Translations under genes and position numbers: made by a program
Notes under the pieces: model-generated
What the model saw: the letters and a program-made list of their open reading frames with translations, nothing else
What the model was told of the DNA's origin: nothing
Database searches by the model: none
Shown: positions 21,597-45,470 of the stretch, in pieces
Position numbering within the stretch: the stretch's first letter is position 1
Layout of the letters: every line of letters starts with the position of its first letter
Source of the DNA: Oligoflexia bacterium
GTDB lineage: Bacteria; Bdellovibrionota; Bdellovibrionia; JABDDW01
Direction: 5' to 3'
Assembly (NCBI GenBank): GCA_023250675.1
Contig: JAHFAE010000002.1
Coordinates: 7,491 to 71,490 of the forward strand
DNA: 64,000 bases

Positions 21597-21758
21597 TTGG
21601 CCGACCTCGTACTTGGCAGCTGGCTGATATTATGCTATAAAATAACAAAAGCCACACTCAATTAGCGATGGCGGGTGCTTTTTTGGGGCTCTCGTAGCTA
21701 ATAAACCTAAGGGTGGTTTTTTTATTTATCGACGCCACCCTTTTTACAAGGAGTGTCT

Positions 21759-22787
21759 ATGAATATGCGAAAAGAACTACTCAAAGAAACCATCGAACAT
21801 TATGACATCAAAAAAATCGACGTAGTCCCCATAGTTGACGCCATGTCAAAAATGGCTTTTCAAGCGAGAAACTTAGGCCGAGCCGCTAAAATTTACGATC
21901 AAATGTTAGCCGAAAAAGACTGTGCAGTTATTTTATGTATGGCTGGAAGTCTTTTTAGCGCAGGTCTAAAAAAGATCGTCTACGATTTGGTTTCAAATAA
22001 TATGGTGGATGCCATTGTATCAACTGGTGCCATTATTGTTGACCAAGATTTTTTCGAAGGCCTGGGTTTTAAGCATTATGTCGGAACTCAGTTTGTCGAT
22101 GACAATATGCTTAGAGAAAATCATATTGACCGCATCTATGATACCTATATTGATGAAGATGAATTGCGTAACTGCGATATGACGATTTCTGAGATTTGCA
22201 AAAGTTTAGAGCCACGCCCCTATTCATCTCGTGAATTTATTAATGCTATGGGTGCCTATTTAGATAAAAATGGTAAGAACAAAGAATCAGTTGTCTTGGC
22301 TGCCTATAAAAACCAAGTGCCCATTTTTGTTCCTGCTTTTTCAGATTGTTCTGCTGGCTTTGGTTTGGTGCACCATCAATGGAATAATTCGAAGAGCCAG
22401 GTGAGTATTGATTCTGCCAAGGATTTTTTGGAACTCACCAAAGTAAAATTGATGGCTAAAGAAACGGGTCTTATGATGATTGGCGGTGGCGTGCCTAAGA
22501 ACTTTGCCCAAGATACAGTAGTGGCGGCAGAAATCTTAGGTAAGGACGTGCCCATGCATAAATATGCGGTGCAAATCACCGTTGCAGACGAGCGCGATGG
22601 AGCCTTATCCGGATCTACTTTGAAAGAGGCGAGTTCTTGGGGCAAAGTCGATACCGCCTATGAGCAAATGGTTTTTGGTGAAGCGACGACATTGTTGCCC
22701 CTGTTAGCGGGATATGCCTATCACAAAAAAAGCTGGCAGAAACGTTCCCCGTTTAAGTTCACTGATAAATTGGCCGCGCCAAAGTAA
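21759..22787 (+). CDS. Deoxyhypusine synthase-like protein (DHS/homospermidine-synthase family). The ORF track starts at GTG 21753; ATG 21759 is preferred because AAGGAG lies 5 nt upstream.
   Basis: Strong similarity pattern to the DHS family (VDAMSKMAFQARNLGRAAKIY..., AIVSTGAIIVDQDFFEGLG). RBS acaAGGAG at 21746-21753. Confidence 0.6.
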   Translation: MNMRKELLKETIEHYDIKKIDVVPIVDAMSKMAFQARNLGRAAKIYDQMLAEKDCAVILCMAGSLFSAGLKKIVYDLVSNNMVDAIVSTGAIIVDQDFFEGLGFKHYVGTQFVDDNMLRENHIDRIYDTYIDEDELRNCDMTISEICKSLEPRPYSSREFINAMGAYLDKNGKNKESVVLAAYKNQVPIFVPAFSDCSAGFGLVHHQWNNSKSQVSIDSAKDFLELTKVKLMAKETGLMMIGGGVPKNFAQDTVVAAEILGKDVPMHKYAVQITVADERDGALSGSTLKEASSWGKVDTAYEQMVFGEATTLLPLLAGYAYHKKSWQKRSPFKFTDKLAAPK

Positions 22788-27135: not shown

Positions 27136-29256
27136 ATGTCCACTTACACTCGAAAGTTAGTATATGCAGCGGCCCTCAGCTTGAGCGGAATCGCGGCCAC
27201 TTTCGGTTGGTACAATTATGACCTAGCTCGTTCTCAACGATCCGATAATTCTCAAAAAACTCTCTTAGGACAAATTGCTTCTGCAAAAAATGAAGTTCAA
27301 AAAAGACAAAAGGGAAGAGTCATTTGGAAGCGCGTTGAAGAACAAGAGCAACTCTTTGCAGGGGAAGCAGTTCGAACTTCTTCTGATAGTGAGGCAAAAA
27401 TAAAATTTAATTCGGGAGCCGAAGTTGATTTAGATCCCGATTCTGTCGTCACTATTGCAAATGAAGGCGACAAACCTAATTTGGACTTTGTGCAGGGGAA
27501 TATCTTTGTAAAAGGCGGCGCCGAAGCTGATTCTCTTGCACTTAAATCAGGTGAAACAAAGATTGATATTAAAAACGCTAATGTGTCATTAGGTTCTTCA
27601 GGAGGAAAAACAGCAGTTCAGGTTTTGAGTGGCACAGCTCTTGTTACAAATGGAGACAAGAAAATCACCTTGGATCAAACCCATTCTGGCGATATTGGAT
27701 CAAACGGGGTGAACATTTCACAAAAATTACTAAACGTTTTAAAACCATTAGCGAATGACCGAATCTACATTCGTTTTGATAAAAAAGAATCAAGTGTATT
27801 TGCGTGGGCGCCAATTTCTGCTGATTATGATGTTCGAATTGAAATGGGACAAAAAAGAGAATTGCTAAAACCAGTAGGGGATTTGGTGGCGGGCTCAAAA
27901 GGTTCTGTGAATATGGCGCTAAAACCAGGTACCCAATACTGGCGGTTTGTCGCTACAAATAAGAAAAACCCCCAGGAAATAAGTTATTCTTCGATAAATA
28001 AACTTGTAGTTATTGCAAACGTGCCACCCCACCTGCTTGCTCCGTCGGCTGATTCTCTCGTGACTCTATCGTCAGATACAAAGAACTTAGAGTTTCGCTG
28101 GGCCAATCCGGCACGTCTTATAAATCTTCATCTTGATGTTGCGAAGGACCCTGGTTTTCAAACTTCGATTTTTTCAGAAGAAATTGAAGACACCGGGCAA
28201 AAAGCTATTACGCCCGAAGACGATGGCGATTATTATTGGCGTATTATCGGTTTTCAGCCCGAGACCAATGTCAAAATTGAAAGTATGGCTCAAAAATTTA
28301 CGTTTAAAACCAAATATGAACTTGTTCCGCCTGAACTAAAACTTCCCGCTACAGAAACGACACTTTCGTTTGACAAAGTAGCCACCGGTGCGGTGTTTCT
28401 CGTTTGGAATCCTCAACCAGGTGCCACCGGTTACTCAGTTCATATAGAAGAAGAAAACAAAAAAGGTGGTTTTGCCATCGACAAAGAAGTGAGTGACACA
28501 ATCGCCAAGATTCCACAAGATGCCAAGCCCGGTCAATACAAGTGGTATGTAGTTTCAATGGATACTGAAGGTCGAAAATCTACTCCAAGTAAATCTAGAA
28601 TTTTTAAGATTCAAGATGTTCCCAAAATCGAATGGTCTGACAATAGAATGCAAGAGAATTATTTTTATATAACATCAAATCCAAGTTTTAAAGTTTCTTT
28701 CAAACCGCCAGCAAAAACTGGAGGAGTGGGTCCCCATCACTTCAAAGTTTTTTATCGCGTCGAGGGGACAGAAAAACCAGAAAGTATGCTGGTGCCAGGT
28801 CCCGTGGATCAAATCCTTAAAGTTTCTAGCAATGGTTTATACCATGTGTTTATCGAAGAGTTTGATTCTAAAGAAAATCTTATGAGTAAATCCGATGTGC
28901 GAGATGTGGTGGTAGAACCAAAGCCATTATTACCAGCACCCCAGTTCGCAGCGCGTATGCCAGCTGCAGTGCAGGCTTCAAAAAATGGCACGGCGCCCTT
29001 AGCTTGGAATCCTGTGGCCGGGGCAAGGGCTTATCTTGTTCAACTTAAAGATGAGAGTGGCAAGGTCAGAAAAGAAGAAAAATTTACGTCTGATTCTGTT
29101 GTAATGAAAAACTTATTACCGGGGCAATATAAATTAACAGTGAGTTCCGTAGATGAACATGGACGATCGGGACCATCAAGTGAAGAAAGGGCACTCAAAG
29201 TACCAGAGGTGAGCGATTTGAAGCCGCCTCAGTTTAAAAAATTTAAAATTCATTAA
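27136..29256 (+). CDS. Membrane-anchored envelope protein: N-terminal TM helix, a FecR-like domain, then multiple Fn3-like repeats.
   Basis: TM helix LVYAAALSLSGIAATFGWY. FecR-like region VIWKRVEEQEQLFAGEAVRTSSDSEAKIKFNSGAEVDLDPDSVVTI. Repeated W-x-P-x-x-GA-x-x-Y Fn3 signatures (LVWNPQPGATGYSVHI, LAWNPVAGARAYLVQL). Confidence 0.5.
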   Translation: MSTYTRKLVYAAALSLSGIAATFGWYNYDLARSQRSDNSQKTLLGQIASAKNEVQKRQKGRVIWKRVEEQEQLFAGEAVRTSSDSEAKIKFNSGAEVDLDPDSVVTIANEGDKPNLDFVQGNIFVKGGAEADSLALKSGETKIDIKNANVSLGSSGGKTAVQVLSGTALVTNGDKKITLDQTHSGDIGSNGVNISQKLLNVLKPLANDRIYIRFDKKESSVFAWAPISADYDVRIEMGQKRELLKPVGDLVAGSKGSVNMALKPGTQYWRFVATNKKNPQEISYSSINKLVVIANVPPHLLAPSADSLVTLSSDTKNLEFRWANPARLINLHLDVAKDPGFQTSIFSEEIEDTGQKAITPEDDGDYYWRIIGFQPETNVKIESMAQKFTFKTKYELVPPELKLPATETTLSFDKVATGAVFLVWNPQPGATGYSVHIEEENKKGGFAIDKEVSDTIAKIPQDAKPGQYKWYVVSMDTEGRKSTPSKSRIFKIQDVPKIEWSDNRMQENYFYITSNPSFKVSFKPPAKTGGVGPHHFKVFYRVEGTEKPESMLVPGPVDQILKVSSNGLYHVFIEEFDSKENLMSKSDVRDVVVEPKPLLPAPQFAARMPAAVQASKNGTAPLAWNPVAGARAYLVQLKDESGKVRKEEKFTSDSVVMKNLLPGQYKLTVSSVDEHGRSGPSSEERALKVPEVSDLKPPQFKKFKIH

Positions 29257-29261
29257 TTAAA

Positions 29262-30959
29262 ATGAAAATGTCATGGATGTCATTGATTACGATTTTAACG
29301 TTGTCTTGTCTGTTCAGCCCGCGCAGTTATGCCGAACTACCTCGGCGTGCTTTAGAATTGGAACTAGAAGCGGTCACGGGAGTTTCAGGTTACGAAATCC
29401 AAGTTATTCGAATCTTAGAAAATAATAAACGTAAACCGCCAGTACTTTTCAAAATTAAAACAACCACTTGGCGTGCGAAACTTGTTCCGGGTCGCTATGA
29501 ACTTCGCGTTCGATCATTGGATTCCAGAGAAGTTCCAGGGGAGTGGAGTGAATCTCAAGATTTTATCGTCAAACTTCCTCCCGCAACTTTGACTAAGCCC
29601 TCAACAGATGAAGTAGTAATGTCAGATCAAACTGAGAAAGAAAAAGTAAATTTTCAATGGCAGCCGGTAGAAGGTGCTGAAAAATATAAGTTAAGAATTC
29701 TAGATTCAAAGGGTTCTATGGTTCTTGAAACCATGGAAAAAGACTCCAGCGTAAGAGTTGAGCTCCCTGTCGGCAAAACATACAGTTGGATTCTTATCCC
29801 TGTTATGCCTGGGGATTTAGAAGGGGAGGCCAATGAACCGGCTAATCCGTTTCAACTTCATGGTGGAAAATTGAAACCTCCTAAAATTGGAGCTGTCGAT
29901 GATACAAACACCGAAGATTTTGAGTGGGCCGAACACTCCCTTGCCGATGAGTTTTCAATAAAAATTGAAAAAAGGGACTTAAAAGGAAATTGGATTGCAC
30001 ATTACGAAGCTAATAAAATTTCTGGGACCAAACATAAGACCGATAAAATTCTTCCGACAGGCAAGTACAGAGTCTTATTGTCTTGCGTGAGCAAAATGTG
30101 GCAAGAATCTGAATTTTCCATGAAGGAATTCAGTACTCGCGATTTAGGTACGAGAGCTCCTGCCGCCATTGAACAGATAAAAGCCGAGGCAAGTTACGAT
30201 TCAAAGAGTCGCATCTTTGCAGTAGCAAGTTATTATTTTTCGTCTATCGATTTTAGCAGTAAGAATGCAGATGTTGGTAATGAGACTAAATTTAACGCAA
30301 TCAGCGGCACGGGGAGATTGGGAGTGGGAACTTGGTTTGGCGATGATTCAAAATGGGGTGCATTGTTGACGGCTGATCTATCTGGAATTCAAATTGCGAA
30401 TTCTGGTTCAACGCAAACCTCCACCTATGCATCGGCTGCAATACTTGGGGTTTACAGAATGCGGCTTGAATCCATTGGTCAGCTTAGATTTTATATGGGA
30501 TTAGACTATAAAGAATTACCTGAGACGGTGAAGAAACCAGGAAGTCAAATCCAAATTGTCCAAAGAAAGATCACCACTGCGGGTCCAAGTTTAGGCGTTG
30601 GTTTCTATCATGGGTTTAGTCAGAACATCGGCATTCAATTTAACTTAGGACTACGTCATTCTACATTGGGATTAAGCACGCCTGAGTCCGCACGATCTGC
30701 ACTCGGCATCTCCCCAAATGGGGGCAATAATGGGGCAACAGATTCAAGTGGCCATGGTTCTAACATTGGCCGCGTTAGTTATCAAGGCGGCGTTCTAGGT
30801 TCTCTAAAGTTAAAGACCGGCCTCGTAGGATTTCTCGGTTACGTCTATCGAGTAGAAAACGCTGCGTATACGACAACCTCCGGTTCTCGCGGAATTGGCG
30901 ACAACTCCGTTTCTCTGACCGGCCATTATCTGAACCTCATGTTAGAGTACGGCTTCTAA
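29262..30959 (+). CDS. Secreted protein with N-terminal Fn3-like repeats and a C-terminal outer-membrane beta-barrel (ends ...LEYGF).
   Basis: Signal peptide. Fn3 signatures (FQWQPVEGAEKYKLRI). C-terminal alternating hydrophobic beta-strand pattern and a terminal aromatic residue typical of OMPs. Confidence 0.5.
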   Translation: MKMSWMSLITILTLSCLFSPRSYAELPRRALELELEAVTGVSGYEIQVIRILENNKRKPPVLFKIKTTTWRAKLVPGRYELRVRSLDSREVPGEWSESQDFIVKLPPATLTKPSTDEVVMSDQTEKEKVNFQWQPVEGAEKYKLRILDSKGSMVLETMEKDSSVRVELPVGKTYSWILIPVMPGDLEGEANEPANPFQLHGGKLKPPKIGAVDDTNTEDFEWAEHSLADEFSIKIEKRDLKGNWIAHYEANKISGTKHKTDKILPTGKYRVLLSCVSKMWQESEFSMKEFSTRDLGTRAPAAIEQIKAEASYDSKSRIFAVASYYFSSIDFSSKNADVGNETKFNAISGTGRLGVGTWFGDDSKWGALLTADLSGIQIANSGSTQTSTYASAAILGVYRMRLESIGQLRFYMGLDYKELPETVKKPGSQIQIVQRKITTAGPSLGVGFYHGFSQNIGIQFNLGLRHSTLGLSTPESARSALGISPNGGNNGATDSSGHGSNIGRVSYQGGVLGSLKLKTGLVGFLGYVYRVENAAYTTTSGSRGIGDNSVSLTGHYLNLMLEYGF

Positions 30960-31018
30960 GGTGCCAGGCACCTTTTCCGCAAATATAGAGGTGCCTGCTG
31001 GTTTTTCCGCAAATGTAG
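30957..31018. repeat. REP-like doublet (left copy): palindrome GGTGCC(A/T)GGCACC plus two direct TTTTCCGCAAAT(A/G)TAG units. Inverted relative to the copy at 32441-32505.
   Basis: The reverse complement matches the 32441-32505 copy at about 57/60 positions. Lies immediately after the stop of the upstream gene. Confidence 0.75.
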
Positions 31019-31077
31019 TTGATCTGAGGCTTAAAGTTTAACTTTTAGAAATGTGCTGTGTGGTTATTTTTGGCCCG

Positions 31078-31512
31078 CTACAAACCTTCACAATCCCGAA
31101 CAAAGTATGTTTCAATCTGACTCTTTGAACCATACTTGGGGTTGTACAAATAGAATTCAAGGCGAGGATAGTAGTTCTCGAGGTTTATTGCCAAAGCCTG
31201 TAGGTAGGTTCCGGTAGTAACAACATAATGGCGACCAGCCCAGGTAGCCAGTGGCAAAACAATTTCATGTTTAGAATTAATATTTTTTTCGGACAGTAGG
31301 CCCTTTTCAAATACTAGCCAGTTAACCAAGTGACCCCTAAAAATTATTTGTCTAGACGGGCTTGTTGTATCGTAATCAACGGCAAAAATCCCTTTGTCGC
31401 AGTTTACAGCATTTTTCCATGGTTCGGAAAAAGCAACCAAAGGTGCTAAGAAAATTGCAAAGGTTAATAATCCTAATATCAAACTTGGCCTCTTAATAAT
31501 TGAAATTGTCAT
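31078..31512 (-). CDS. Small secreted hypothetical protein located inside the REP-bounded segment.
   Basis: 144 aa with signal peptide LILGLLTFAIFLAPLVAFS and 2 Cys. Confidence 0.4.
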   Translation of the reverse strand: MTISIIKRPSLILGLLTFAIFLAPLVAFSEPWKNAVNCDKGIFAVDYDTTSPSRQIIFRGHLVNWLVFEKGLLSEKNINSKHEIVLPLATWAGRHYVVTTGTYLQALAINLENYYPRLEFYLYNPKYGSKSQIETYFVRDCEGL

Positions 31513-31669
31513 TTGTAACTCCCTGGAATAAATTCAAAACGTGGGCTTAAAACCGTCTCATTTTTTGGCCATTTACCCACCATTGTTGAATTAGTGCTAA
31601 TTGAGACTTCTGAGGCTTACTATTGAAATAATCGTGCCATCAGAATTTGGGAAGTGATTTCTCTCAAAA

Positions 31670-32410
31670 ATGTCCGAAATTGTCCGACGTGGATTCGGAC
31701 ACTTTATGCTCAATATACCATATATTTCATTTGGGAAGTTGGTACGCTTTGCATTGTCGATTCGCATGACGAGAAAATTGGCAGTTACTTCTGAGTATTT
31801 CCCTTTTCATATTACCGCACGCACGGTGAACAGAGACCTTTTTCCTATTCCACTACCAATCCTTTGGCAAGTTTATGAAAACTACCTTTACTATATACAC
31901 TTGGCATACGGGACAAAATTACTTTCATTTGTATTAATGCCAAATCACTTTCATCTACTAGCTCAATTTCCAAAAGGTAACATGAGCGAAACAATGGGTT
32001 TTTTCATGGGCGAAACAAGTAGGCGGGTTGGGGAAAAATCCGGGCGGATAAACCAATTGTATGGTGGCCGTTACCATCGCTCTCTCATATCTAATGAGAT
32101 TTATTTTAGGCACGCATATAAGTATGTCTACAGTAATCCAGTAAGAGCAAATTTAGTAAATAGAGTGGAGGACTATCCATTCTCAAGCTTGCACGGCTTG
32201 TTAGGCAGACGCACACTCGTAATTCCGATTGAAGAAGATACTTTGCTTTTTAATCAAGAATTCAGTTGGAAAACAGTGAACTGGCTGAATCGAAATCCCC
32301 AAAAAACCCATTTGGAAGAGGTTCGTTGTGCGCTTCGCAAAAAGTCATTTTCACTTCCCATAAACAAATTTACAAGAATTCCTAGTCAATTAGAACATCA
32401 AGATTTTTGA
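31670..32410 (+). CDS. REP-associated tyrosine transposase (RAYT / TnpA_REP, IS200-IS605 Y1 HuH family). The true start may be the internal Met at about 31766.
   Basis: HuH motif NHFHLL. RAYT motifs YGGRYHRSLI (compare wqrRFwdH) and YVYSNPVRANLVNRVEDYPFSS (compare YIHxNPVKxGLVxxxxDWPWSS). Flanked by inverted REP doublets. Confidence 0.75.
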   Translation: MSEIVRRGFGHFMLNIPYISFGKLVRFALSIRMTRKLAVTSEYFPFHITARTVNRDLFPIPLPILWQVYENYLYYIHLAYGTKLLSFVLMPNHFHLLAQFPKGNMSETMGFFMGETSRRVGEKSGRINQLYGGRYHRSLISNEIYFRHAYKYVYSNPVRANLVNRVEDYPFSSLHGLLGRRTLVIPIEEDTLLFNQEFSWKTVNWLNRNPQKTHLEEVRCALRKKSFSLPINKFTRIPSQLEHQDF

Positions 32411-32440
32411 ATTTAACTTAGAGAAATTTTCGCCAAATGC

Positions 32441-32505
32441 CCCTATATTTGCGGAAAAACCAGCAGGCACCTCTATATTTGCGGAAAAGGTGCCTGGCAC
32501 CTAGG
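32441..32505. repeat. REP-like doublet (right copy), inverted relative to 30957-31018.
   Basis: CCCTATATTTGCGGAAAAACCAGCAGGCACCTCTATATTTGCGGAAAAGGTGCCTGGCACCTAGG. Abuts the stop of the downstream minus-strand gene. Confidence 0.75.
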
Positions 32506-34357
32506 CGGCTTTGATCTTGTCGGCATGTTCGGCTTCATAAGCAGAGTAGGGTGTTGAAATCTCAATTGCCCTCCCTGTCTCATCGATATAACCGGTAACT
32601 TTAAATAATTTAAGAGGTTCTGATTTTCCTTTCACTGTGGCCGTGCCTGCTTGAACAAAAGTAAAAAATTCTTTTACTTTTTCATAAGTAACTTCGCTCA
32701 CAAGAAAATCTGTACCGTAAGCCTTAGTTGCGGCTTCAATTCTTGAGGCCATGTTAACTGTATCTCCGATGACAGTGTATTCCATACGATCATCGCTTCC
32801 GATAGTTCCTGCGATAAGGTCTCCGGAATGAACACCCATTCCAATTTTAATGGGACTTTGTTTTCGCTCGATTCGCGTCGCGTTTAGTTCGGCAAGTGCC
32901 TGCCTCATTTCTAAGCAAGCTTTAAGCGCGTTGGCAGCATCATTCCCAAAACTCTCTGGCGCGCCCCATACCGCCATGATGGCGTCTCCTATGAATTTGT
33001 CGACGACACCTTTGTTTTTTGTGATAATAGCAACCATAACTTTAAAATATTCATTGAGCATATCCACTACTTCTTGGGGAGTGGCTTTTTCGCTGGTAGC
33101 CGTAAATCCTCTGATATCACTAAAAAAAACAGTGGCCTCTCGAAAATCACCACCCAGTTTCATTTCACCAGTGATGAGTTTGTTCGCGATGCCGGTGCCG
33201 TGGAATTTATTAAAAAGAGTTTTAACTTTGTCGCGTTCTTTGAGACCTACCACCATTTTATCAAATGCTTGTGCTAATTGCCCCACTTCATCTTTGGTTT
33301 TGATAGACGCATTAGCTTCAAAATTACCTTTGGCTACTTCTTCTGTGGCCCGCAACAATACTTCGAGGGGTCTTGTGAGTGTCGTAGAAAATAAAATAAT
33401 GAAGAATAACGCGCCAAAGAGGACAATGCCTGTTATTAAAAAGGCGTTTCGACGAACGTTTAATGAAGGTTCAAGAAAAATGCTTCCAGGTATTTCTGAA
33501 ATCACAATGGGACCATACAGTGTTTTTGCGTAGGCACCAACTATTGTCTCTTTATCTTCATTTTCAAACCGACTTTGAAATTGATTTACTTTTTGAGACA
33601 AAGCTTTAACTACCATGGGGTCAGCAGATAAATTTTGGCCGTGTATGGCAAACTCTTGGTTGGAATGGGCCAATGTTCTTCCAAATTTATCAACTAAGAA
33701 GATTGTTCTCTCACTCATTCTTTCGGCCAAGGTGTCAAATATGGCTTGAAATCGGCTTAACCGTATATCCGCTAGAACCACATGGGTGATTCGACCGGTT
33801 TCATCATCTTTGACCAGGGGCAAACTAATAGACAAGAGTGGGGCTCCACCCTCAAGAGTTGAATTTCGAACCTCGACTTCTCCTATTTCAAAAGACAACC
33901 TTGTAGAAAACGGTTTATTAGCTCTGAGCGACGAAATGTACTCGCTGTCCACCTTGTATTGTTTTAAATATTCCTCATTGATAACTCGCTTTACCAACAC
34001 ATCTTTATTGTCAACACGGGTTATAACTTCGACGGCAACAAGATCGTGGTCACCACGAAACGCAAGATCTAGAGCGGCTTCTCTATTTTCTTCAGAAGGA
34101 AAATTTCTATAGAGAATTCCACCCACTACTTTTTCTTTATTAATAATATCTTGAAAATTGTCTTGAATTTCTTCGGCAATAATTTTGGCTTGACTACCGT
34201 TGACGTCGTTTTCTCTTGCGGTTGAAACGTCTTTAAACAAAAACGTCGATCGCAATGCAATTGGAATGGTCGCTGCGAGCATCAGTAGACTAGTGATAGT
34301 CACAAGTTTTACTGCGATAGGGATTTTCATATTTTTGATTTTATCAAGCATCTCCAA
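32501..34357 (-). CDS. Membrane-bound class III adenylate/guanylate cyclase with an extracytoplasmic sensor region and a HAMP linker.
   Basis: Cyclase core FSDIRGFTATSE...GDAIMAVWGAP...GVHSGDLIAGTIG. Two TM segments bracket a ~250-aa periplasmic domain. Confidence 0.7.
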   Translation of the reverse strand: MEMLDKIKNMKIPIAVKLVTITSLLMLAATIPIALRSTFLFKDVSTARENDVNGSQAKIIAEEIQDNFQDIINKEKVVGGILYRNFPSEENREAALDLAFRGDHDLVAVEVITRVDNKDVLVKRVINEEYLKQYKVDSEYISSLRANKPFSTRLSFEIGEVEVRNSTLEGGAPLLSISLPLVKDDETGRITHVVLADIRLSRFQAIFDTLAERMSERTIFLVDKFGRTLAHSNQEFAIHGQNLSADPMVVKALSQKVNQFQSRFENEDKETIVGAYAKTLYGPIVISEIPGSIFLEPSLNVRRNAFLITGIVLFGALFFIILFSTTLTRPLEVLLRATEEVAKGNFEANASIKTKDEVGQLAQAFDKMVVGLKERDKVKTLFNKFHGTGIANKLITGEMKLGGDFREATVFFSDIRGFTATSEKATPQEVVDMLNEYFKVMVAIITKNKGVVDKFIGDAIMAVWGAPESFGNDAANALKACLEMRQALAELNATRIERKQSPIKIGMGVHSGDLIAGTIGSDDRMEYTVIGDTVNMASRIEAATKAYGTDFLVSEVTYEKVKEFFTFVQAGTATVKGKSEPLKLFKVTGYIDETGRAIEISTPYSAYEAEHADKIKAA

Positions 34358-34473: not shown

Positions 34474-36180
34474 ATGAAGATGCAAGAGCAAAACAACTTG
34501 AGGGGGCAACCAATGGCCAGATCTTTGACTTACATTATTTTCGTTGGGTATTTATTCACTTCAGTCCAAGCCTTTGCGCAGAGTCAGAAGTGCTTTGATT
34601 TTAAACCTGTTAGCCAATTCAACGACGAGAAATGTTCAGCGGTTCGAGCTGAACTGCAGATGAAAGATTGCGCGACCGGTGCCAATCAAGGAGAGGTATC
34701 TAAAGTTTTTGCCAACTTTGAATGCAAACGTCCAGTCAAACGTCTTAAATATTGGTACAAAGATCAAATGCTCTACGGTGATTTAGAGAAGGATGGCAAT
34801 TCGTATAAGGTTGTAAAAACTTACACAAATCCAGCTACGCCATCTAATAAAACCACCAAAGCATCAACGGCGAAACCCCCATTAGTCGTAGGTACAACCA
34901 AAGCTGCTTCATTACCAATTCCTGTAAATTTAGGGGCGGGTCCCTTAGATACGAAATCAATCAAAGCAGATCTTGCTAGAGATAATTTAAAAGTTACACC
35001 CACCGCTACACCAGCTAAAGAAGAGAAAGTAGCCGTGGCATCAACGCCCGCTCCCGCACCAGAAGCGGCCAAGCCAAGTCCTACTCCGGTTGCTGTTTTG
35101 GCGCCCGAAGAAGTCAAATCCGCAGTGGATATTTCTAAAATAAAATTTTCTGGTCTTGTTGATTCATATTATTCTTACAATTTCAACGAACCAACGTCAA
35201 AACCGGGCCAAGCCGCATACGGGGCCTCACCTGCCAAAGATCAACAAAATAAATTGGTGGCACCTAATTTTTACCACGATTCGCCAACGCTCAATTTACT
35301 TGAGCTTTCTTGGGATCAAAAAGCTGAACCCGTTGGATTTCGAATTGATTTGGGATTTGGTCCTATTTCAGATTTTGTAGCAGGAACGGGAAGTGATGAA
35401 AGTACGAGAAGGGTAATGCAAGGTTACTTGAGCTACCAAACTCCCTTTGGCCTTCAAGTCGATGCGGGAAAATTTGCTACCCATATGGGTTTTGAGTCTA
35501 TCGAGGCAGCGAGAAATTGGAACTATTCTTATTCAAAACTTTTTATTTATGCGCTTCCTCTATGGCATAACGGCGTTCGTGCGACTATGCCCGTCGGAAA
35601 TAATTTGTCTATCAGTGGGTCTGTTGCCAACGGTTGGAATACTTTTTATGAAAACAACTACAATAAAACGTACGGCGGGCAGATTAAGATCAAACCGGGT
35701 ATGGGATTAGAAACAACACTTAATTATATTGGCGGAAATGAAACCGCCGGTGTTGGAAATTCAAGCGATAACCGAACGGTATACGAAGGTATTGCCAGTT
35801 ACTCCGGCTTAAAGTTCCTCAAAGTCGCAGTTGACTATGCGGTGGCCAAAGAAACTATGAACGGGTCACCGATTAACCAACTGACCTCGACGGTATTCTA
35901 TGCACGTTTAAAATTAGGAGAAAAATTTGCGATCAGTCCTCGGTATGAAATGTTTTCTGACGACGGAGTGATTTCAACGGGGACACTTTCTGGCTATACG
36001 CTAGGAAGTGGGCAAACAATCACTTCAGGAACACTGTCTCTAGATTACGAGCTAGGTACGGGTCTCATTGTAAGAGCTGAATACGGCAATGATTCAAGTT
36101 CGTTGCAGGCCTACACGAATAAAGATGGTGTAACTGGCTCACAATCTATCGCCACAATTGCGGGGTTATTAAGTTTTTAG
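34474..36180 (+). CDS. Secreted outer-membrane beta-barrel (porin-like) protein with a Pro/Thr/Ala-rich N-terminal linker.
   Basis: Signal peptide. PT-rich low-complexity stretch. C-terminal ~380 aa of amphipathic beta-strands ending in a terminal Phe (…AGLLSF). Confidence 0.5.
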   Translation: MKMQEQNNLRGQPMARSLTYIIFVGYLFTSVQAFAQSQKCFDFKPVSQFNDEKCSAVRAELQMKDCATGANQGEVSKVFANFECKRPVKRLKYWYKDQMLYGDLEKDGNSYKVVKTYTNPATPSNKTTKASTAKPPLVVGTTKAASLPIPVNLGAGPLDTKSIKADLARDNLKVTPTATPAKEEKVAVASTPAPAPEAAKPSPTPVAVLAPEEVKSAVDISKIKFSGLVDSYYSYNFNEPTSKPGQAAYGASPAKDQQNKLVAPNFYHDSPTLNLLELSWDQKAEPVGFRIDLGFGPISDFVAGTGSDESTRRVMQGYLSYQTPFGLQVDAGKFATHMGFESIEAARNWNYSYSKLFIYALPLWHNGVRATMPVGNNLSISGSVANGWNTFYENNYNKTYGGQIKIKPGMGLETTLNYIGGNETAGVGNSSDNRTVYEGIASYSGLKFLKVAVDYAVAKETMNGSPINQLTSTVFYARLKLGEKFAISPRYEMFSDDGVISTGTLSGYTLGSGQTITSGTLSLDYELGTGLIVRAEYGNDSSSLQAYTNKDGVTGSQSIATIAGLLSF

Positions 36181-41407: not shown

Positions 41408-43525
41408 ATGACGACCGCGAAATTTTCGCCTTTTATAAATAGAGAACTCAGTTGGTTAGCATTCAATGACCGAGTGCTCGAAGAAGCTCAGGACACAAAC
41501 TATCCAATCTTAGAACGGCTCAAGTTTTTGGCCATTGTGAGCTCAAATTTAGACGAGTTTTTCATGATTCGCGTGGCCGGTTTGGAGCGACAAGTCAAAC
41601 GGAGTCCCCATTCTCGTTCGGAGGATGGAATGAAAATAGAGGATACCTTATATCAAATTCGAGAATGGGTTTTAAGTCAAAAAGCTAGACAAGGAATCAT
41701 TCTCAATGACCTTCTCAAGCAGCTTCGCGATAAGGGATTAGATCTTCAAATCCATATTCCTCAGATCGACGAAGCTCATTTGAAAGTTGCCAAAAAAATT
41801 CTACCCGAAGTTAAAATTTACCATTTCAATTCTCCAGATGCATTTCATCAATTGGTAGGAAGTCAGATTTACGTTTTCGTAAGACTTAAAAATAGATTTG
41901 CAGTCTTAGGGTGGCCCGAAAAATTCGATCGCCTTGTGGCTAGTCCGTTGGCTGACAATATTAAATCAAAACACCATTTTATTTTAGCCGAAAAATTAAT
42001 AGCCGCAGCTGCCGGTCTTTATTTCGAAAATGAAACAGTCTTAGAGGCTTTTCCATTTAAAGTCATTAGAGACGCTGAGGTAGATATTGATCCAGAGACT
42101 GATCCCGAAGACCTCTTGTCTACAATTGAAGAGGCTATTTTAAATCGTGCCAAACAAACTGTTGTTCGCCTTGAAGTTGATGCACCAACAATTTCTGATG
42201 GAGCACTGTTACTGGCAAGTTCTTTAAAACTTCGCGCACGATCAGTCTACCGGTATGACGTTCCATTAGATCTTAAAATCTTGTGGAGACTTCACGGGCT
42301 TGAAGAGTTTTCTAATTTACGATTTTCTGTTTCAGGTAAAAAATCTGGCGCCCTTTCGCTTCGAGTTCCGGACCTGGTAAAGGCAGTGAAGGGGCAAGAT
42401 ATTTTACTCCATCACCCTTATGATTCATTTGATACGGTGGTAAAATTGTTACAAGCAGCAGCGCAGGACCCCTCTGTCTTCGCGATCAGACAAACGCTTT
42501 ATAGAACGGGCAAAAACTCTCCCATTGTTGCTGCTCTTATAGAAGCTGCGAAAAGGGGAAAACAGGTTACCGTATTTATTGAACTCAGGGCGAGGTTCGA
42601 CGAAGTTCATAATATCGAACTTGCTAAAGAGTTTAAAAGATATGGTGTAAAGGTTTTAGAGGGATTTTCAGATAAAAAAATTCACTGTAAATTGACCCAA
42701 ATTTTAAGAAGAGAAAAGCAGGAAGTCATTTCATTTGTACACATTGGTACGGGCAATTACAATCCCAGTACTGCGAAACTTTACACTGATCTGGGTCTTC
42801 TCACCACAAGCAAATCATTTGGGCGAGATGCAGAAAAAATCTTTAGGTCTCTGCAAAACAAAACCATTCCTAGAACATTTGAAACATTCGTTGCGGCACC
42901 GGTACAGTTACATAAAAAAATATTAGATTGGATTCGATTTGAAACTAAGCGGTCCTTGGCGGGTGATAAAAAGTCTCATATTATTGCAAAAATCAATGCG
43001 CTTGTTGATGTTCAGCTGGTCGAAGCACTCTATAAAGCATCTAAGGCCGGCGTAAAAATAGATCTTATCGTACGGGGAGCTTGTATGCTTCGACCCGGTG
43101 TTCCGGGTTTAAGCGAGAATATTAGGGTTACAAGTATTGTTGAAAAGTACCTAGAGCACAGTCGCATCTACTTTTTTCAAAATGGTGAGCACCCGCAAGT
43201 TTATCTCTCAAGTGCCGACTGGATGCCTCGAAATTTTCATAAACGAATTGAAGTGGCATTTCCTATTCATGATAGCGATCTCAAAAAGTATATCAGAGAT
43301 GTAGTACTCGAAAACCTTATAAAGGATAATCAAAAAGCTCGACAGCTCATGCCCGATGGCCAGTGGATCAAAATTATTCCCAGGCAGGGGGAGTCAAGTC
43401 ACCGTGCCCAGTTAGTTTTTGATAAATTGGCCGAGAACAACTACGAGGGTACTCCGCTGTATTCTAGATTCGTATTTCAAAAAGACGAAGCGTTTAACTT
43501 ACCCGAAGGAGTCAAGCCTTCTTGA
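41408..43525 (+). CDS. ppk: Polyphosphate kinase 1.
   Basis: 705 aa with N-terminal FINRELSWLAFNDRVLEEA...ERLKFLAIVSSNLDEFFMIRVAGL, characteristic of PPK1, and tandem PLD-like C-terminal domains. Confidence 0.85.
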   Translation: MTTAKFSPFINRELSWLAFNDRVLEEAQDTNYPILERLKFLAIVSSNLDEFFMIRVAGLERQVKRSPHSRSEDGMKIEDTLYQIREWVLSQKARQGIILNDLLKQLRDKGLDLQIHIPQIDEAHLKVAKKILPEVKIYHFNSPDAFHQLVGSQIYVFVRLKNRFAVLGWPEKFDRLVASPLADNIKSKHHFILAEKLIAAAAGLYFENETVLEAFPFKVIRDAEVDIDPETDPEDLLSTIEEAILNRAKQTVVRLEVDAPTISDGALLLASSLKLRARSVYRYDVPLDLKILWRLHGLEEFSNLRFSVSGKKSGALSLRVPDLVKAVKGQDILLHHPYDSFDTVVKLLQAAAQDPSVFAIRQTLYRTGKNSPIVAALIEAAKRGKQVTVFIELRARFDEVHNIELAKEFKRYGVKVLEGFSDKKIHCKLTQILRREKQEVISFVHIGTGNYNPSTAKLYTDLGLLTTSKSFGRDAEKIFRSLQNKTIPRTFETFVAAPVQLHKKILDWIRFETKRSLAGDKKSHIIAKINALVDVQLVEALYKASKAGVKIDLIVRGACMLRPGVPGLSENIRVTSIVEKYLEHSRIYFFQNGEHPQVYLSSADWMPRNFHKRIEVAFPIHDSDLKKYIRDVVLENLIKDNQKARQLMPDGQWIKIIPRQGESSHRAQLVFDKLAENNYEGTPLYSRFVFQKDEAFNLPEGVKPS

Positions 43526-43608
43526 ATTTCATGTCGACGAATCTGTTAAGCAATGTTTTATGAAACTAGTCTATTGCAAATCCCATGGGCCAATCGTATA
43601 AATGATCA

Positions 43609-45327
43609 ATGATAAATATTCTTGGATTGACTTTATCGTTAATTGTTTCCTGCAACACCTTTGCAGACATGGATGTGTCTTTTACGATCAAAACCTCAAA
43701 AATTGATACACTTACCAATGAAATCACTTTCGTAGCACCGCCAAATCACCATTTTAATGGGCAATCCCCCTCCTTGGCTGAAGGACAGGCAGGTGGAAAT
43801 TGGGTCAGGGCACATACGCTAAATACTTCAGGTAATGAAGTGAAAGCATTCTGGGAAGAAAAAATTGAACCTTGCCATCTGCGGGCGCATTTATATATGT
43901 GTGACGATGCAAACACTTATTGTTTACCGATTAAACAAAATTTTAGTTGTCGTGGTAAAGAGTTCTATATCTCTGGCTGGCTTGATGATGAAAAGGATAA
44001 AGTCAAACCAACTGAAGAATCGATTGGATCTCAAGACGGTTTTATATTAAATGATGCTAGAATTGTTTTTGAAAAAGCAAGAGTTGAAAACAAACTGGTC
44101 CTCATTGATTTTTTTGGCATTTGGTGTCCTCCCTGTAACATGTTGGATGAAACAGTCTTTTCTTCAGAAGATTTTTCAAAATTGAAAGGGAGTTTTATAC
44201 TCTTGAAAATTGACGTAGATAAACCATTGGCCTGGGACCTGAAATCCAAATACAAGATTAGAGGTTACCCGACAGTTTTGTTTACCACCCCAAAGGGAGA
44301 TGAGATAGACCGAATTCTTGGAGCCCGCACCCTTCCCGATTTTATCAAAGTAATGAAAAAGGCACTATCTAATAAGACCAATTCATTTGTCGAAGCAAAA
44401 CGTATTGCCGATGAGAAAAACGATAAAAATGCCGCATTGCAGGTGGGCAATATTTATTTAAACCGCAGAGAGTATCATGATGCTCACTTCTATTATTTAA
44501 AGTCTATTTTAAATGGTAGTGCTGGGTCGGCGCGCAAAAACTTAGAAAATAATATCATGAGTGCGACTCTTGGAATTTATGCAAATGCCGCTGATTCGAA
44601 TTCTCGTCAGAGACATGTTGCTCTATTAAAAATGGCAATAGAAAAATTTCCCCACTATATTGAGGCACTGGATCGAGCGGACGAATTGGTTAACCAAACT
44701 AAAGAACTAGAAAATAAATCTGCAGAACGTGAAGTCTTAAATCTTCAGATTAATACGGCCAAGTGGTTTCTTAAGAATCCCAAAGCTTTACAAGGATCAG
44801 AATGGACTTTTGGGGATTTGTACCAGGTCATTGGGGATTCCTACGGCTCACTCACTGAAATAGAAAAGTCGAGGGAATCATATAAAGAAGCTTCAAAATA
44901 CTACTTAAAGCAAATTCAAGATGCACATCTTAATGAAAATTCTGAAAGAGGATTTAATTTGGAGAGAATTTATTGCCTTTGGAAATCTGGCCGGGTTGAA
45001 GAAGCCCGGCAAGCCTATGAAAAATTAGAAAAAATATACCCAGAAGAATTCACATTTTATTATCAGCATGGCCGGCTTTTAGACGAAATCAAACTCCCCA
45101 AAGAAGCTCAGGGTAAAGCGGAAAAAGCATACAAATTTTCTTATGGGGACAACCATCTGCGTTCAGCGGCATTACTTGCAAAAATTCTCAAAGACCTCGG
45201 GGAAAGTGCAGGTGCCCAAAAGATCTTAGATGAAACCATGAAAAACACCGATTTACCGGAAGACAAATCTGTTCGGACCCACCGATATTTTGAAAAGCTT
45301 CAAAAACTAAAAGCAGAACTGAAATAA
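43609..45327 (+). CDS. Lipoprotein/secreted thioredoxin-fold protein (WCPPC active site) fused to C-terminal TPR repeats.
   Basis: Lipobox-like LSLIVSC. Thioredoxin motif DFFGIWCPPCNML. TPR-like helical repeats in the C-terminal half. Confidence 0.55.
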   Translation: MINILGLTLSLIVSCNTFADMDVSFTIKTSKIDTLTNEITFVAPPNHHFNGQSPSLAEGQAGGNWVRAHTLNTSGNEVKAFWEEKIEPCHLRAHLYMCDDANTYCLPIKQNFSCRGKEFYISGWLDDEKDKVKPTEESIGSQDGFILNDARIVFEKARVENKLVLIDFFGIWCPPCNMLDETVFSSEDFSKLKGSFILLKIDVDKPLAWDLKSKYKIRGYPTVLFTTPKGDEIDRILGARTLPDFIKVMKKALSNKTNSFVEAKRIADEKNDKNAALQVGNIYLNRREYHDAHFYYLKSILNGSAGSARKNLENNIMSATLGIYANAADSNSRQRHVALLKMAIEKFPHYIEALDRADELVNQTKELENKSAEREVLNLQINTAKWFLKNPKALQGSEWTFGDLYQVIGDSYGSLTEIEKSRESYKEASKYYLKQIQDAHLNENSERGFNLERIYCLWKSGRVEEARQAYEKLEKIYPEEFTFYYQHGRLLDEIKLPKEAQGKAEKAYKFSYGDNHLRSAALLAKILKDLGESAGAQKILDETMKNTDLPEDKSVRTHRYFEKLQKLKAELK

Positions 45328-45401: not shown

Positions 45402-45470
45402 GGCCTTATATTTGCGGAAAAACCACCAGGCACCTCTATATTTGCGGAAAAGGTGCCTGGCACCTAGGCC
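45402..45470. repeat. Solo REP-like doublet, same family and orientation as the 32441-32505 copy, filling the spacer between convergent genes.
   Basis: GCCTTATATTTGCGGAAAAACCACCAGGCACCTCTATATTTGCGGAAAAGGTGCCTGGCACCTAGGCCC. Near-identical to the right REP of the RAYT locus. Confidence 0.75.

Follow-up and report, generated by a model that had tools for sequence, protein, structure and literature searches.

A FecR-domain protein, an outer-membrane barrel protein and a sensor adenylate cyclase form a conserved gene module in Bdellovibrionota that may relay envelope signals to cAMP

FecR domains are usually taken as markers of regulation by ECF sigma factors, and the locus described here raises the question of what such a domain does in an envelope protein that is encoded next to an outer-membrane barrel protein. 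The locus lies in a stretch of 64,000 nucleotides from an Oligoflexia bacterium of the Bdellovibrionota (contig JAHFAE010000002.1), which we refer to as the window and to which all coordinates apply. An original prediction, made from the letters of the DNA, had described two adjacent genes, here called A and B, as an envelope pair that carries Fn3 repeats at both membranes. We confirm that observation, infer that the two proteins form a physical complex across the periplasm, and propose that A and B together with a dCache-HAMP adenylate cyclase make up a trans-envelope relay, resembling cell-surface signalling, with cAMP and not an ECF sigma factor as its output, a reading to which we give about an even chance of being correct. 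The function of the pair had been put down as unknown and the pair is indeed uncharacterised, but its linkage to the cyclase narrows the role to that of an accessory module of a cAMP-producing sensor.

Gene A (706 aa; 27136-29256, forward strand) and gene B (565 aa; 29262-30959, forward strand) have exactly the ORF limits first given for them and are separated by 5 nt. In A, Pfam detects a FecR domain (PF04773; aa 78-168, 36.4 bits against a cutoff of 24) and an fn3 domain (PF00041; aa 619-682, 32.6 bits against a cutoff of 25), while in the AlphaFold2 monomer model (pLDDT 80.8) an N-terminal helix (aa 3-34) precedes a beta domain (aa 43-195), to which five beta-sandwich domains are joined before the chain ends in a disordered tail. 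The anchor, the FecR-like domain and the four or more Fn3 repeats originally read in A thus reappear as a predicted anchor, a Pfam FecR domain and five Fn3/Ig domains in the model. The seven-stranded beta-sandwich of Fn3 was found by PF00041 or by fold in domains of both A and B, but the signature W-x-P-x-x-GA-x-x-Y attributed to the repeats occurs just twice in A and once in B, the others being recognisable by fold only. There are about ten close homologs of A, the fullest name among them being ‘FecR domain-containing protein [Oligoflexia bacterium]’.

The N-terminal helix of A (27142-27237; hydrophobic core at aa 8-26) is predicted, from the model and from conservation among orthologs, to be an N-in inner-membrane anchor that leaves about seven residues in the cytoplasm. 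Its pattern R/K-x-[IL]-x-A-[AG]-x-[LIV]-S...WY is kept in 22 orthologs (Kyte-Doolittle values of 1.2-2.6), in which S15 and W25 show conservation of 90% or more, and G18 is invariant among 10 close homologs. In this window the hydrophobicity of the segment is no more than moderate (Kyte-Doolittle 1.62 over 17 aa), which leaves a small probability that it is a cleaved signal peptide. It is followed by the FecR-type periplasmic beta domain (aa 43-195; 27262-27720), defined by Pfam and AlphaFold2, whose nearest match in a fold search is PupR; for this region the fold search was more informative than a sequence search against solved structures, which gave marginal matches only (MpIBP retention module, E 0.022; MtxA, E 0.037). 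Four Fn3/Ig-like domains then follow by fold match (aa ~200-295, 299-392, 400-495 and 497-597; 27733-28926), the third of which is absent from orthologs of 595-643 aa; the gaps that these leave in the alignment bring conservation down to 0.13-0.26 over aa 401-500. The last Fn3 domain (aa 610-690) and the tail (aa 691-706, VPEVSDLKPPQFKKFKIH), together at 28963-29253, were delimited by the Pfam fn3 match and by conservation. No other stretch of A is as well conserved as the tail (0.71; V689, P690, S693, P698 and K701), which is nevertheless modelled as disordered.

In the AlphaFold2 monomer model of B (pLDDT 83.1) a signal peptide is followed by three Fn3 domains, and a short helix then leads to 10 long strands, the same architecture as had been read from its sequence, with a C-terminal barrel ending in YGF. 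FecR and Fn3 matches had been expected in Pfam for the pair; A provides both above their cutoffs, but B matches no Pfam family above its cutoff. The signal peptide (aa 1-24; 29262-29333) was read from the sequence, with cleavage after SYA, and B orthologs have classical AxA cleavage sites ahead of a conserved E/D-x-x-RR motif. In the model the Fn3 domains occupy aa 29-103, 110-203 and 219-293 (29346-30140), the first being the most conserved of the three, and they are followed by a conserved helix (aa 300-309, RxPAAxEQ) and a 10-stranded barrel (aa 318-565) ending in EYGF (together 30159-30956). The barrel strands have pLDDT values mostly above 80, the terminal EYGF is kept in orthologs, and the closest folds are those of OpcA and OmpT. 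With its signal peptide, even number of antiparallel strands and C-terminal aromatic beta-signal, B is predicted to be an outer-membrane barrel protein, and since the strand number is even its three Fn3 domains are expected on the periplasmic side. The predicted outward loops are short, except for one variable loop (aa 473-499), which would fit an anchor better than a ligand receptor.

Is the pair a functional unit, and with what does it travel? Of the 31 Bdellovibrionota loci that could be assessed, 30 have A directly upstream of B, in line with the expectation that the two would be conserved together, and a gene for a sensor adenylate cyclase adjoins the pair in 28 of 30 assessable loci. This cyclase is co-directional with A and B in 22 loci, with gaps of less than 15 nt or 4-bp overlaps, as in the complete genomes NZ_CP176530 (L027) and CP025734 (L031). 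Some loci count against a relay: in the window’s clade the cyclase is inverted relative to A-B and is not co-transcribed, locus L006 keeps A-B but lacks a cyclase within 6-8 kb, and locus L015 has B alone. Locus L038, where a cyclase has beside it a short B and a truncated piece of A, is treated as a degraded or misassembled copy and was left out of the counts. When the ORFs of 35 loci were clustered, A, B and the cyclase were the only families common to most of them; the genes flanking the trio vary by lineage, LemA and Hsp33 being found beside close relatives only, and the association is therefore not mere general synteny. The module is vertically conserved across the phylum and is not patchy. 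Word-index searches had returned 11-12 relatives, as if the family were tiny, but an exhaustive profile search found hundreds of clusters; a search of metagenomes gave two loci only. Two ORFs at 41408-45327 (705 and 572 aa), considered as a paralogous pair, encode a polyphosphate kinase and a thioredoxin/TPR protein unlike A or B, and membership of A or B in NCBIfam LIC11435 was rejected, as one Fn3-like stretch alone matched (40.8 bits against a cutoff of 380).

The cyclase, which the original prediction overlooked and which is the strongest functional clue at the locus, is a 618-aa protein encoded on the reverse strand (32501-34357), 1.5 kb downstream of B, and its true start is probably M3 or M10. 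Pfam identifies Guanylate_cyc (PF00211; 107.8 bits), HAMP (47.9) and dCache_1 (48.3; cutoff 45) in it, and hydrophobic segments lie at aa 10-41 and at aa 303-335. It has the catalytic residue set of class III adenylate cyclases, D414, K454, D458, D532, N535 and R539 all being present and at least 90% conserved among 23 sequences. By our reading of the motifs they provide both metal-binding Asp, the Lys and Asp that specify the substrate, and the Asn and Arg of the transition state, a set that by established class III rules predicts ATP specificity. What separates B from the cyclase here is a REP/RAYT-like insertion (30960-32501), recognised by its flanking palindromes and a transposase-like gene. 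The GGTGCCWGGCACC palindromes that flank it lie at 30960 and 32489, the window having 3 copies of the palindrome against 0.01 expected, and the insertion carries a 144-aa ORF (31078-31512, reverse strand) and a REP-associated tyrosine transposase-like gene (31670-32410, forward strand; Y1_Tnp) that scores 74.1 bits with NF047646, just below the cutoff of 80. No Rfam family matched between 25.0 and 36.5 kb of the window.

A division of labour within A is suggested by paralogous loci, in all five of which a longer Fn3-barrel gene follows a gene for a small protein of 168-194 aa (~190 aa). The small partner consists of a membrane anchor, one Fn3 domain and a tail of the form AP-x-[VI]-K-x-I-x-[VI]-E; it aligns to residues ~595-706 of A only and is homologous end to end with A’s last Fn3 and tail. 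The FecR domain and the cyclase are absent from all five loci. That both are missing where only the Fn3-tail partner remains suggests that the tail docks on the barrel protein and that FecR couples to the cyclase, a pattern drawn from only five paralogous loci. We therefore propose the last Fn3 and tail of A as a docking module for B.

In the relay that we propose, the signal peptide of B would direct its export, the 10-stranded barrel would insert in the outer membrane with the Fn3 domains on the periplasmic side, and A would be held at the inner membrane with its FecR-type domain beside the membrane and its five-Fn3 stalk reaching outward. The last Fn3 and C-terminal tail of A would dock onto B, since this module is all that the small partners of the paralogous barrel proteins have in the periplasm. 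The membrane-proximal FecR domain, possibly with the anchor helix, may contact the cyclase, either at its periplasmic dCache domain or at its transmembrane helices, given that FecR and cyclase are present together and absent together. A change at or in the outer membrane, for which a ligand bound to the barrel, contact with a surface or with prey and altered membrane spacing are candidate triggers, could then travel along the Fn3 bridge and reach the FecR domain, which would shift the HAMP-cyclase output and so raise or lower cAMP. Fully extended end to end, A and B would measure ~30 nm or more and may exceed the periplasm.

A reading in which A-B is a purely structural tether or spacer between the two membranes, in a role like that of Lpp, OmpA or Tol-Pal, with the cyclase as a regulatory or historical neighbour, strikes us as unlikely. 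Paralogous anchor-Fn3-tail and Fn3-barrel pairs exist without any signalling protein, the barrel loops of B are mostly short, L006 retains A-B without an adjacent cyclase and the window’s clade lacks co-transcription. Against this, the cyclase keeps its place in 28 of 30 loci, several with 4-bp overlaps, across lineages whose other flanks differ, and FecR is a signalling-associated fold that is found only in the cyclase-linked version. It is more doubtful still that the Fn3 stalks from opposite membranes, joined through the tail of A, act as a mechanical strut or ruler, such that a change in the spacing of the two membranes, or strain on the outer membrane when the cell touches a surface or prey, pulls on the FecR domain and switches the cyclase; if so, a mechanosensory path to cAMP would exist in predatory Bdellovibrionota.

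We think it improbable that B works as an adhesin of the autotransporter kind, passing its three Fn3 domains to the cell surface through its own barrel, with A as a periplasmic helper or a second surface-directed protein. Its order of N-terminal passenger-like domains, short conserved helix (aa 300-309) and C-terminal barrel is type Va-like, and Fn3/Ig arrays are common among adhesins. However, type Va autotransporters have a 12-stranded C-terminal barrel with the linker helix inside the pore and the model of B has 10 strands, and A is anchored by its N-terminal helix and has a tail conserved with inner-membrane-anchored mini-partners.

That A is a classical FecR-type anti-sigma factor, with its ECF sigma factor encoded at a distance and B as outer-membrane transducer, is very improbable, even though A has the periplasmic FecR domain (PF04773) of that class and PupR is its closest fold match. 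Such proteins have an N-terminal cytoplasmic domain of ~80-90 aa; A has ~7 residues ahead of its anchor, and no further FecR-family Pfam match at either end, five Fn3/Ig domains standing where the C-terminal STN-like subdomain that binds the transducer would be. B is a 10-stranded barrel and not a 22-stranded TonB-dependent transducer with plug and signalling domain. The original remark that no ECF sigma factor is adjacent also holds more widely, as none was found at 17.5-47 kb in a scan of the ORFs of at least 150 aa, which covered all but one opposite-strand ORF inside the cyclase gene, and no sigma family is among the conserved neighbours of A-B across 35 loci. With so few cytoplasmic residues and no ECF sigma factor nearby, A does not count as an anti-sigma factor. 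The small ORFs found at 20.5-21.6 kb, considered as sigma/anti-sigma genes, encode an FAA hydrolase and a histidine phosphatase. Least credible is a Pycsar-like anti-phage cyclase with A and B as membrane effectors, as the matches to PADLOC PycC models (best E 4.8e-33) span the generic class III catalytic domain only, A and B match no PADLOC defence model, no cyclic-nucleotide-binding effector is adjacent, the extracytoplasmic dCache sensor and HAMP are typical of environmental sensors, and the module is vertically conserved.

A phylum-wide and uncharacterised module thus brings together a FecR domain, a sensor adenylate cyclase and an outer-membrane barrel, linked by long Fn3 stalks. If the relay exists, it would be a route from an outer-membrane signal to an inner-membrane second-messenger enzyme and would explain the scattered FecR-cyclase gene clusters of other phyla. 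For the sensing of surfaces or prey by predatory bacteria the module is a concrete candidate, and the split between docking (last Fn3 and tail) and coupling (FecR) is directly testable with constructs. A Bdellovibrio AlphaFold-Multimer paper names adenylate cyclase only as a two-hybrid tool.

Among known systems, OpcA and OmpT share the 10-stranded barrel fold predicted for B, but at only 9-11% identity and with no Pfam family matched, and B differs in its short predicted outer loops and N-terminal periplasmic Fn3 array. The Rcs system (RcsF-IgaA) likewise has an outer-membrane component that extends through the periplasm to a signalling partner at the inner membrane; this is a functional analogy only, as the proteins and folds are unrelated and the Rcs output is a phosphorelay, not cAMP. 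In FecA-FecR-FecI and PupB-PupR, the periplasmic domain of FecR contacts the periplasmic N-terminus of FecA (PMC5498481), and the C-terminal part of A is similarly proposed to reach a barrel partner encoded alongside. However, A has neither the cytoplasmic anti-sigma domain nor an ECF sigma factor and has five Fn3 domains and a tail in place of the STN-like subdomain, B has three Fn3 domains and is no TonB-dependent transducer, and the conserved third gene is an adenylate cyclase. In S. meliloti, the inner-membrane class III CHASE2 cyclases CyaD1, CyaD2 and CyaK need the outer-membrane barrel protein NsrA for activation (PMC7529298, PMC13001267), and in this pathway the cAMP-dependent regulator Clr has the FecR-domain gene smc02177 among its targets, plant-signal perception being unimpaired in smc02177 mutants (PMC5498481). 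As in the CHASE2 clusters, a FecR-domain protein and an outer-membrane barrel are linked to a cyclase here; A and B are likened to SMc02177 and NsrA by description and gene linkage, not by sequence. The sensor is dCache_1 in the window, with no CHASE2 match, and NsrA is ~1200 aa with its barrel in the C-terminal half (PMC7529298), Fn3 stalks not being mentioned in the NsrA literature covered. Campylobacterota have a cluster of a CHASE2 adenylate cyclase, a phosphodiesterase, a FecR-domain protein of the outer membrane and a TPR protein (PMC9239204). The present module has no conserved phosphodiesterase or TPR gene (35 loci clustered), and it has separate FecR and barrel proteins bridged by Fn3 stalks where the Campylobacterota FecR domain is reported to lie within the outer-membrane protein, but in both a conserved cluster joins a sensor adenylate cyclase to a FecR-domain envelope protein.

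Genes A and B lie on the forward strand at 27136..29256 and 29262..30959, as open reading frames of 706 and 565 amino acids that occupy exactly the positions given to them in the original prediction, and 5 nt separate the stop codon of A (TAA) from the start codon of B (ATG). The window has a G+C content of about 41%, and both proteins have their closest relatives in metagenome-assembled genomes of Oligoflexia/Bdellovibrionota. The W-x-P-x-x-GA-x-x-Y signature by which Fn3-like repeats had been recognised has just two exact matches in A and one in B, the other repeats being identifiable by their fold. A deoxyhypusine synthase-family gene (PF01916, E 7.5e-99; 21753-22787), 4 kb upstream, is unrelated to the pair.

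Pfam searches of A returned a FecR domain at residues 78-168 (PF04773, 36.4 bits against a cutoff of 24) and an fn3 domain at residues 619-682 (PF00041, 32.6 bits against a cutoff of 25). An AlphaFold2 model built with 10 homologs as input (mean pLDDT 80.8) gives an N-terminal helix (residues 3-34), a beta-rich domain (43-195) and five beta-sandwich domains (approximately 200-295, 299-392, 400-495, 497-597 and 610-690), with low confidence for the final 14 residues. Despite being modelled as disordered, the C-terminal tail (residues 691-706) is the best-conserved stretch of the protein. The third Fn3 domain is dispensable, as it is absent from orthologs of 595-643 amino acids, and in distant orthologs the FecR domain can be recognised through Pfam or homology. 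With only about seven residues ahead of its hydrophobic segment, A has no space for a cytoplasmic anti-sigma domain like that in true FecR proteins, and Pfam found no further FecR-family domains, N-terminal or C-terminal. The anchor is moderately hydrophobic (Kyte-Doolittle 1.62 over 17 residues) and its pattern, with WY at the end, is kept across 22 orthologs and differs from that of a typical cleaved signal peptide; from sequence, we read it as a predicted signal-anchor that may nevertheless be cleaved.

Protein B matched no Pfam or NCBIfam family above its cutoff. Its structure model (12 input sequences, pLDDT 83.1) shows a signal peptide followed by three beta-sandwich domains (residues 29-103, 110-203 and 219-293). 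After a short conserved helix (300-309) come ten long strands, which begin at residue 318 and run to the C-terminus; the protein ends in EYGF as part of a conserved C-terminal motif. In outer-membrane proteins generally, an even number of strands places both ends of the barrel on the periplasmic side, and the Fn3 domains of B are therefore expected to be periplasmic. A Gly/Ser/Asn-rich insertion of some 20 residues (residues 473-499; 30678-30758) lies in the loop predicted to be the fourth on the outer side; it is modelled with low confidence and is missing or much shorter in every aligned homolog.

B orthologs were found at 32 distinct loci by context look-ups and by scanning GTDB with one genome for each species, and all 32 loci are from Bdellovibrionota; they were retrieved through the C-terminal motif of B and the sampling therefore covers B-bearing loci. 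Complete genomes among them include those of Pseudobdellovibrio sp. HCB154 (NZ_CP176530) and 'Bdellovibrio sp. qaytius' (CP025734). Conservation of the pair as a unit is borne out, with A immediately upstream of B in 30 of 31 assessable loci and L015 the only exception. When all open reading frames were clustered, just three families were common to most loci, namely A, B and a dCache_1-HAMP-class III adenylate cyclase, which adjoins A-B in 28 of the 30 loci where this could be assessed. It follows B directly and in the same direction in 22 loci (four of them cut by contig ends), with gaps of less than 15 nt or 4-bp overlaps, and is convergent in six, including the window and its closest relatives, where its position varies from overlap with the end of B (L008) to 2.3 kb downstream. 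In Pseudobdellovibrio sp. HCB154, which can be cultured, the trio lies in a single operon. No cyclase was found in the available flanks of the other two loci, L006 and L015. Flanking genes such as those for LemA, Hsp33, lipoamide dehydrogenase and pyruvate:ferredoxin oxidoreductase are kept in close relatives only, and more distant loci retain the trio alone.

Several loci have irregularities of their own. In L004/L019 (10100-11690; GCA_016715815.1) the B ortholog is broken into two open reading frames of 232 and 302 amino acids, while a Logan contig with an identical A protein (L005, 2923-4512) has it intact at 529 amino acids; the split is probably an assembly frameshift error and not a pseudogene. 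The contigs of L020, L028 and L030, labelled 'Streptomyces griseus', 'Proteobacteria bacterium' and 'Pseudomonadota bacterium' MAGs, carry the full Bdellovibrionota-type operon and are probably mis-binned or mislabelled. At L038 (2488-8244), a 284-amino-acid open reading frame that begins within an Fn3 domain corresponds to the last 40% of an A ortholog; it is followed by a short, 459-amino-acid B relative and, 1.6 kb downstream, a convergent cyclase. This copy is either degraded or an artefact of assembly.

The cyclase of the window (32501..34357, reverse strand) has hydrophobic segments at residues 10-41 and 303-335 on either side of a periplasmic region that scores slightly over the dCache_1 cutoff, followed by HAMP and then the class III catalytic domain. 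In the motifs FSD, KFIGDA and IGDTVNMASR lie two metal-binding Asp residues, a Lys/Asp pair, an Asn and an Arg, each at least 90% conserved among 23 sequences. In class III cyclases a Lys/Asp pair specifies ATP, which is thus the predicted substrate. Reading the periplasmic domain by eye, we saw no amino-acid-binding motif of the R-x-W-Y type. The open reading frame is listed with a TTG start (34330-34357) and homolog alignments start at residues 2-10, so translation probably begins instead at the ATG of codon 3 or 10. A divergent BBP2 (OmpL-like) porin gene (34474-36180) adjoins the cyclase here, in L004/L019 and in L008; it is not found in more distant loci and is probably clade-level synteny only.

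The 1.5-kb spacer between B and the cyclase (30960-32501) has a copy of the palindrome GGTGCCWGGCACC at each end, with a third copy at 45452-45464 (three observed in the window against 0.01 expected). Within it are a 144-amino-acid open reading frame with no family match (31078..31512, reverse strand) and, at 31670..32410, a gene resembling those for REP-associated tyrosine transposases, whose NF047646 score of 74.1 bits falls short of the cutoff of 80. The spacer looks like a REP/RAYT element inserted later. Its first palindrome, followed by TTTT, may double as the terminator of B.

At E <=1e-30, an exhaustive profile search returned 775 cluster representatives for the B family; of the 150 matches listed, most span the near-full profile, at 520-560 amino acids, and the 20 clusters checked bore no functional name beyond 'hypothetical protein'. 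A longer subfamily of 640-714 amino acids has extra Fn3 domains, and our comparison of paralogs rests on five of its loci (L035, L036, L037, L039 and L040). In each case the barrel-protein gene is directly preceded by a gene for a protein of 168-194 amino acids, which begins with a strongly hydrophobic anchor for the inner membrane and continues through a linker and a single Fn3 domain to the tail AP-x-[VI]-K-x-I-x-[VI]-E[ED]. Over their whole length these mini-partners match the C-terminal 107 residues of A, including the tail (E 2e-8 and 3e-7), and no other part of A, and neither a FecR region nor a cyclase was found at any of the five loci. Such mini-pairs look like a minimal form of envelope bridge, and the simplest reading is that the last Fn3 domain and tail of A are the module that engages the Fn3-barrel protein, while the FecR domain goes with the cyclase.

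We propose, with about even confidence, that A, B and the cyclase form a signalling module, counting the architectures, topology signals, operon structure and co-occurrence pattern as shown or predicted. A would be held at the inner membrane and B in the outer one, the two meeting via the C-terminal module of A. In the order of its parts (anchor, FecR domain, C-terminus binding an outer-membrane partner) A parallels FecR/PupR, but it lacks their cytoplasmic output domain, so that a signal must exit sideways to another inner-membrane protein, for which the cyclase is the sole conserved candidate. The membrane-proximal FecR domain of A, perhaps with the conserved anchor helix, may contact the dCache domain or transmembrane helices of the cyclase, and a change at the outer membrane would in this way alter cAMP synthesis.

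That A-B is instead a structural tether is suggested by the cyclase-free mini-pairs, the short barrel loops of B and L006, but we regard it as unlikely given that the linkage to the cyclase is tight and phylum-wide and that only the cyclase-linked version has the FecR domain. Autotransporter-like display of the Fn3 domains of B at the cell surface would suit the domain order of B, yet its barrel is 10-stranded and we consider this quite improbable. There is a very slim chance of a classical anti-sigma system, four of whose five defining features failed to hold, and a slimmer one still of a Pycsar-like defence system, for which generic similarity of the catalytic domain is the sole argument.

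The closest mechanistic relatives of the signalling module proposed here are FecA/FecR-type cell-surface signalling and the NsrA/CHASE2 cyclase pathway of S. meliloti. In the latter, the CHASE2 adenylate cyclases of the inner membrane depend on NsrA, a barrel protein of the outer membrane (PMC7529298, PMC13001267), and smc02177, which encodes a FecR-domain protein, is a target of the cAMP-dependent regulator Clr in the same pathway and was not required for signal perception (PMC5498481). In Campylobacterota, genes for a CHASE2 cyclase, a phosphodiesterase, a TPR protein and an outer-membrane protein with a FecR domain are clustered (PMC9239204). Named homologs of A are called only 'FecR domain-containing protein'. 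Because its cyclase sensor is dCache whereas that of both these systems is CHASE2, its FecR domain and barrel are on separate proteins and both A and B bear long Fn3 stalks, and since our literature search found no published description of the A/B family, the A-B-cyclase module belongs, as a variant, with known signalling from the outer to the inner membrane to a class III cyclase.
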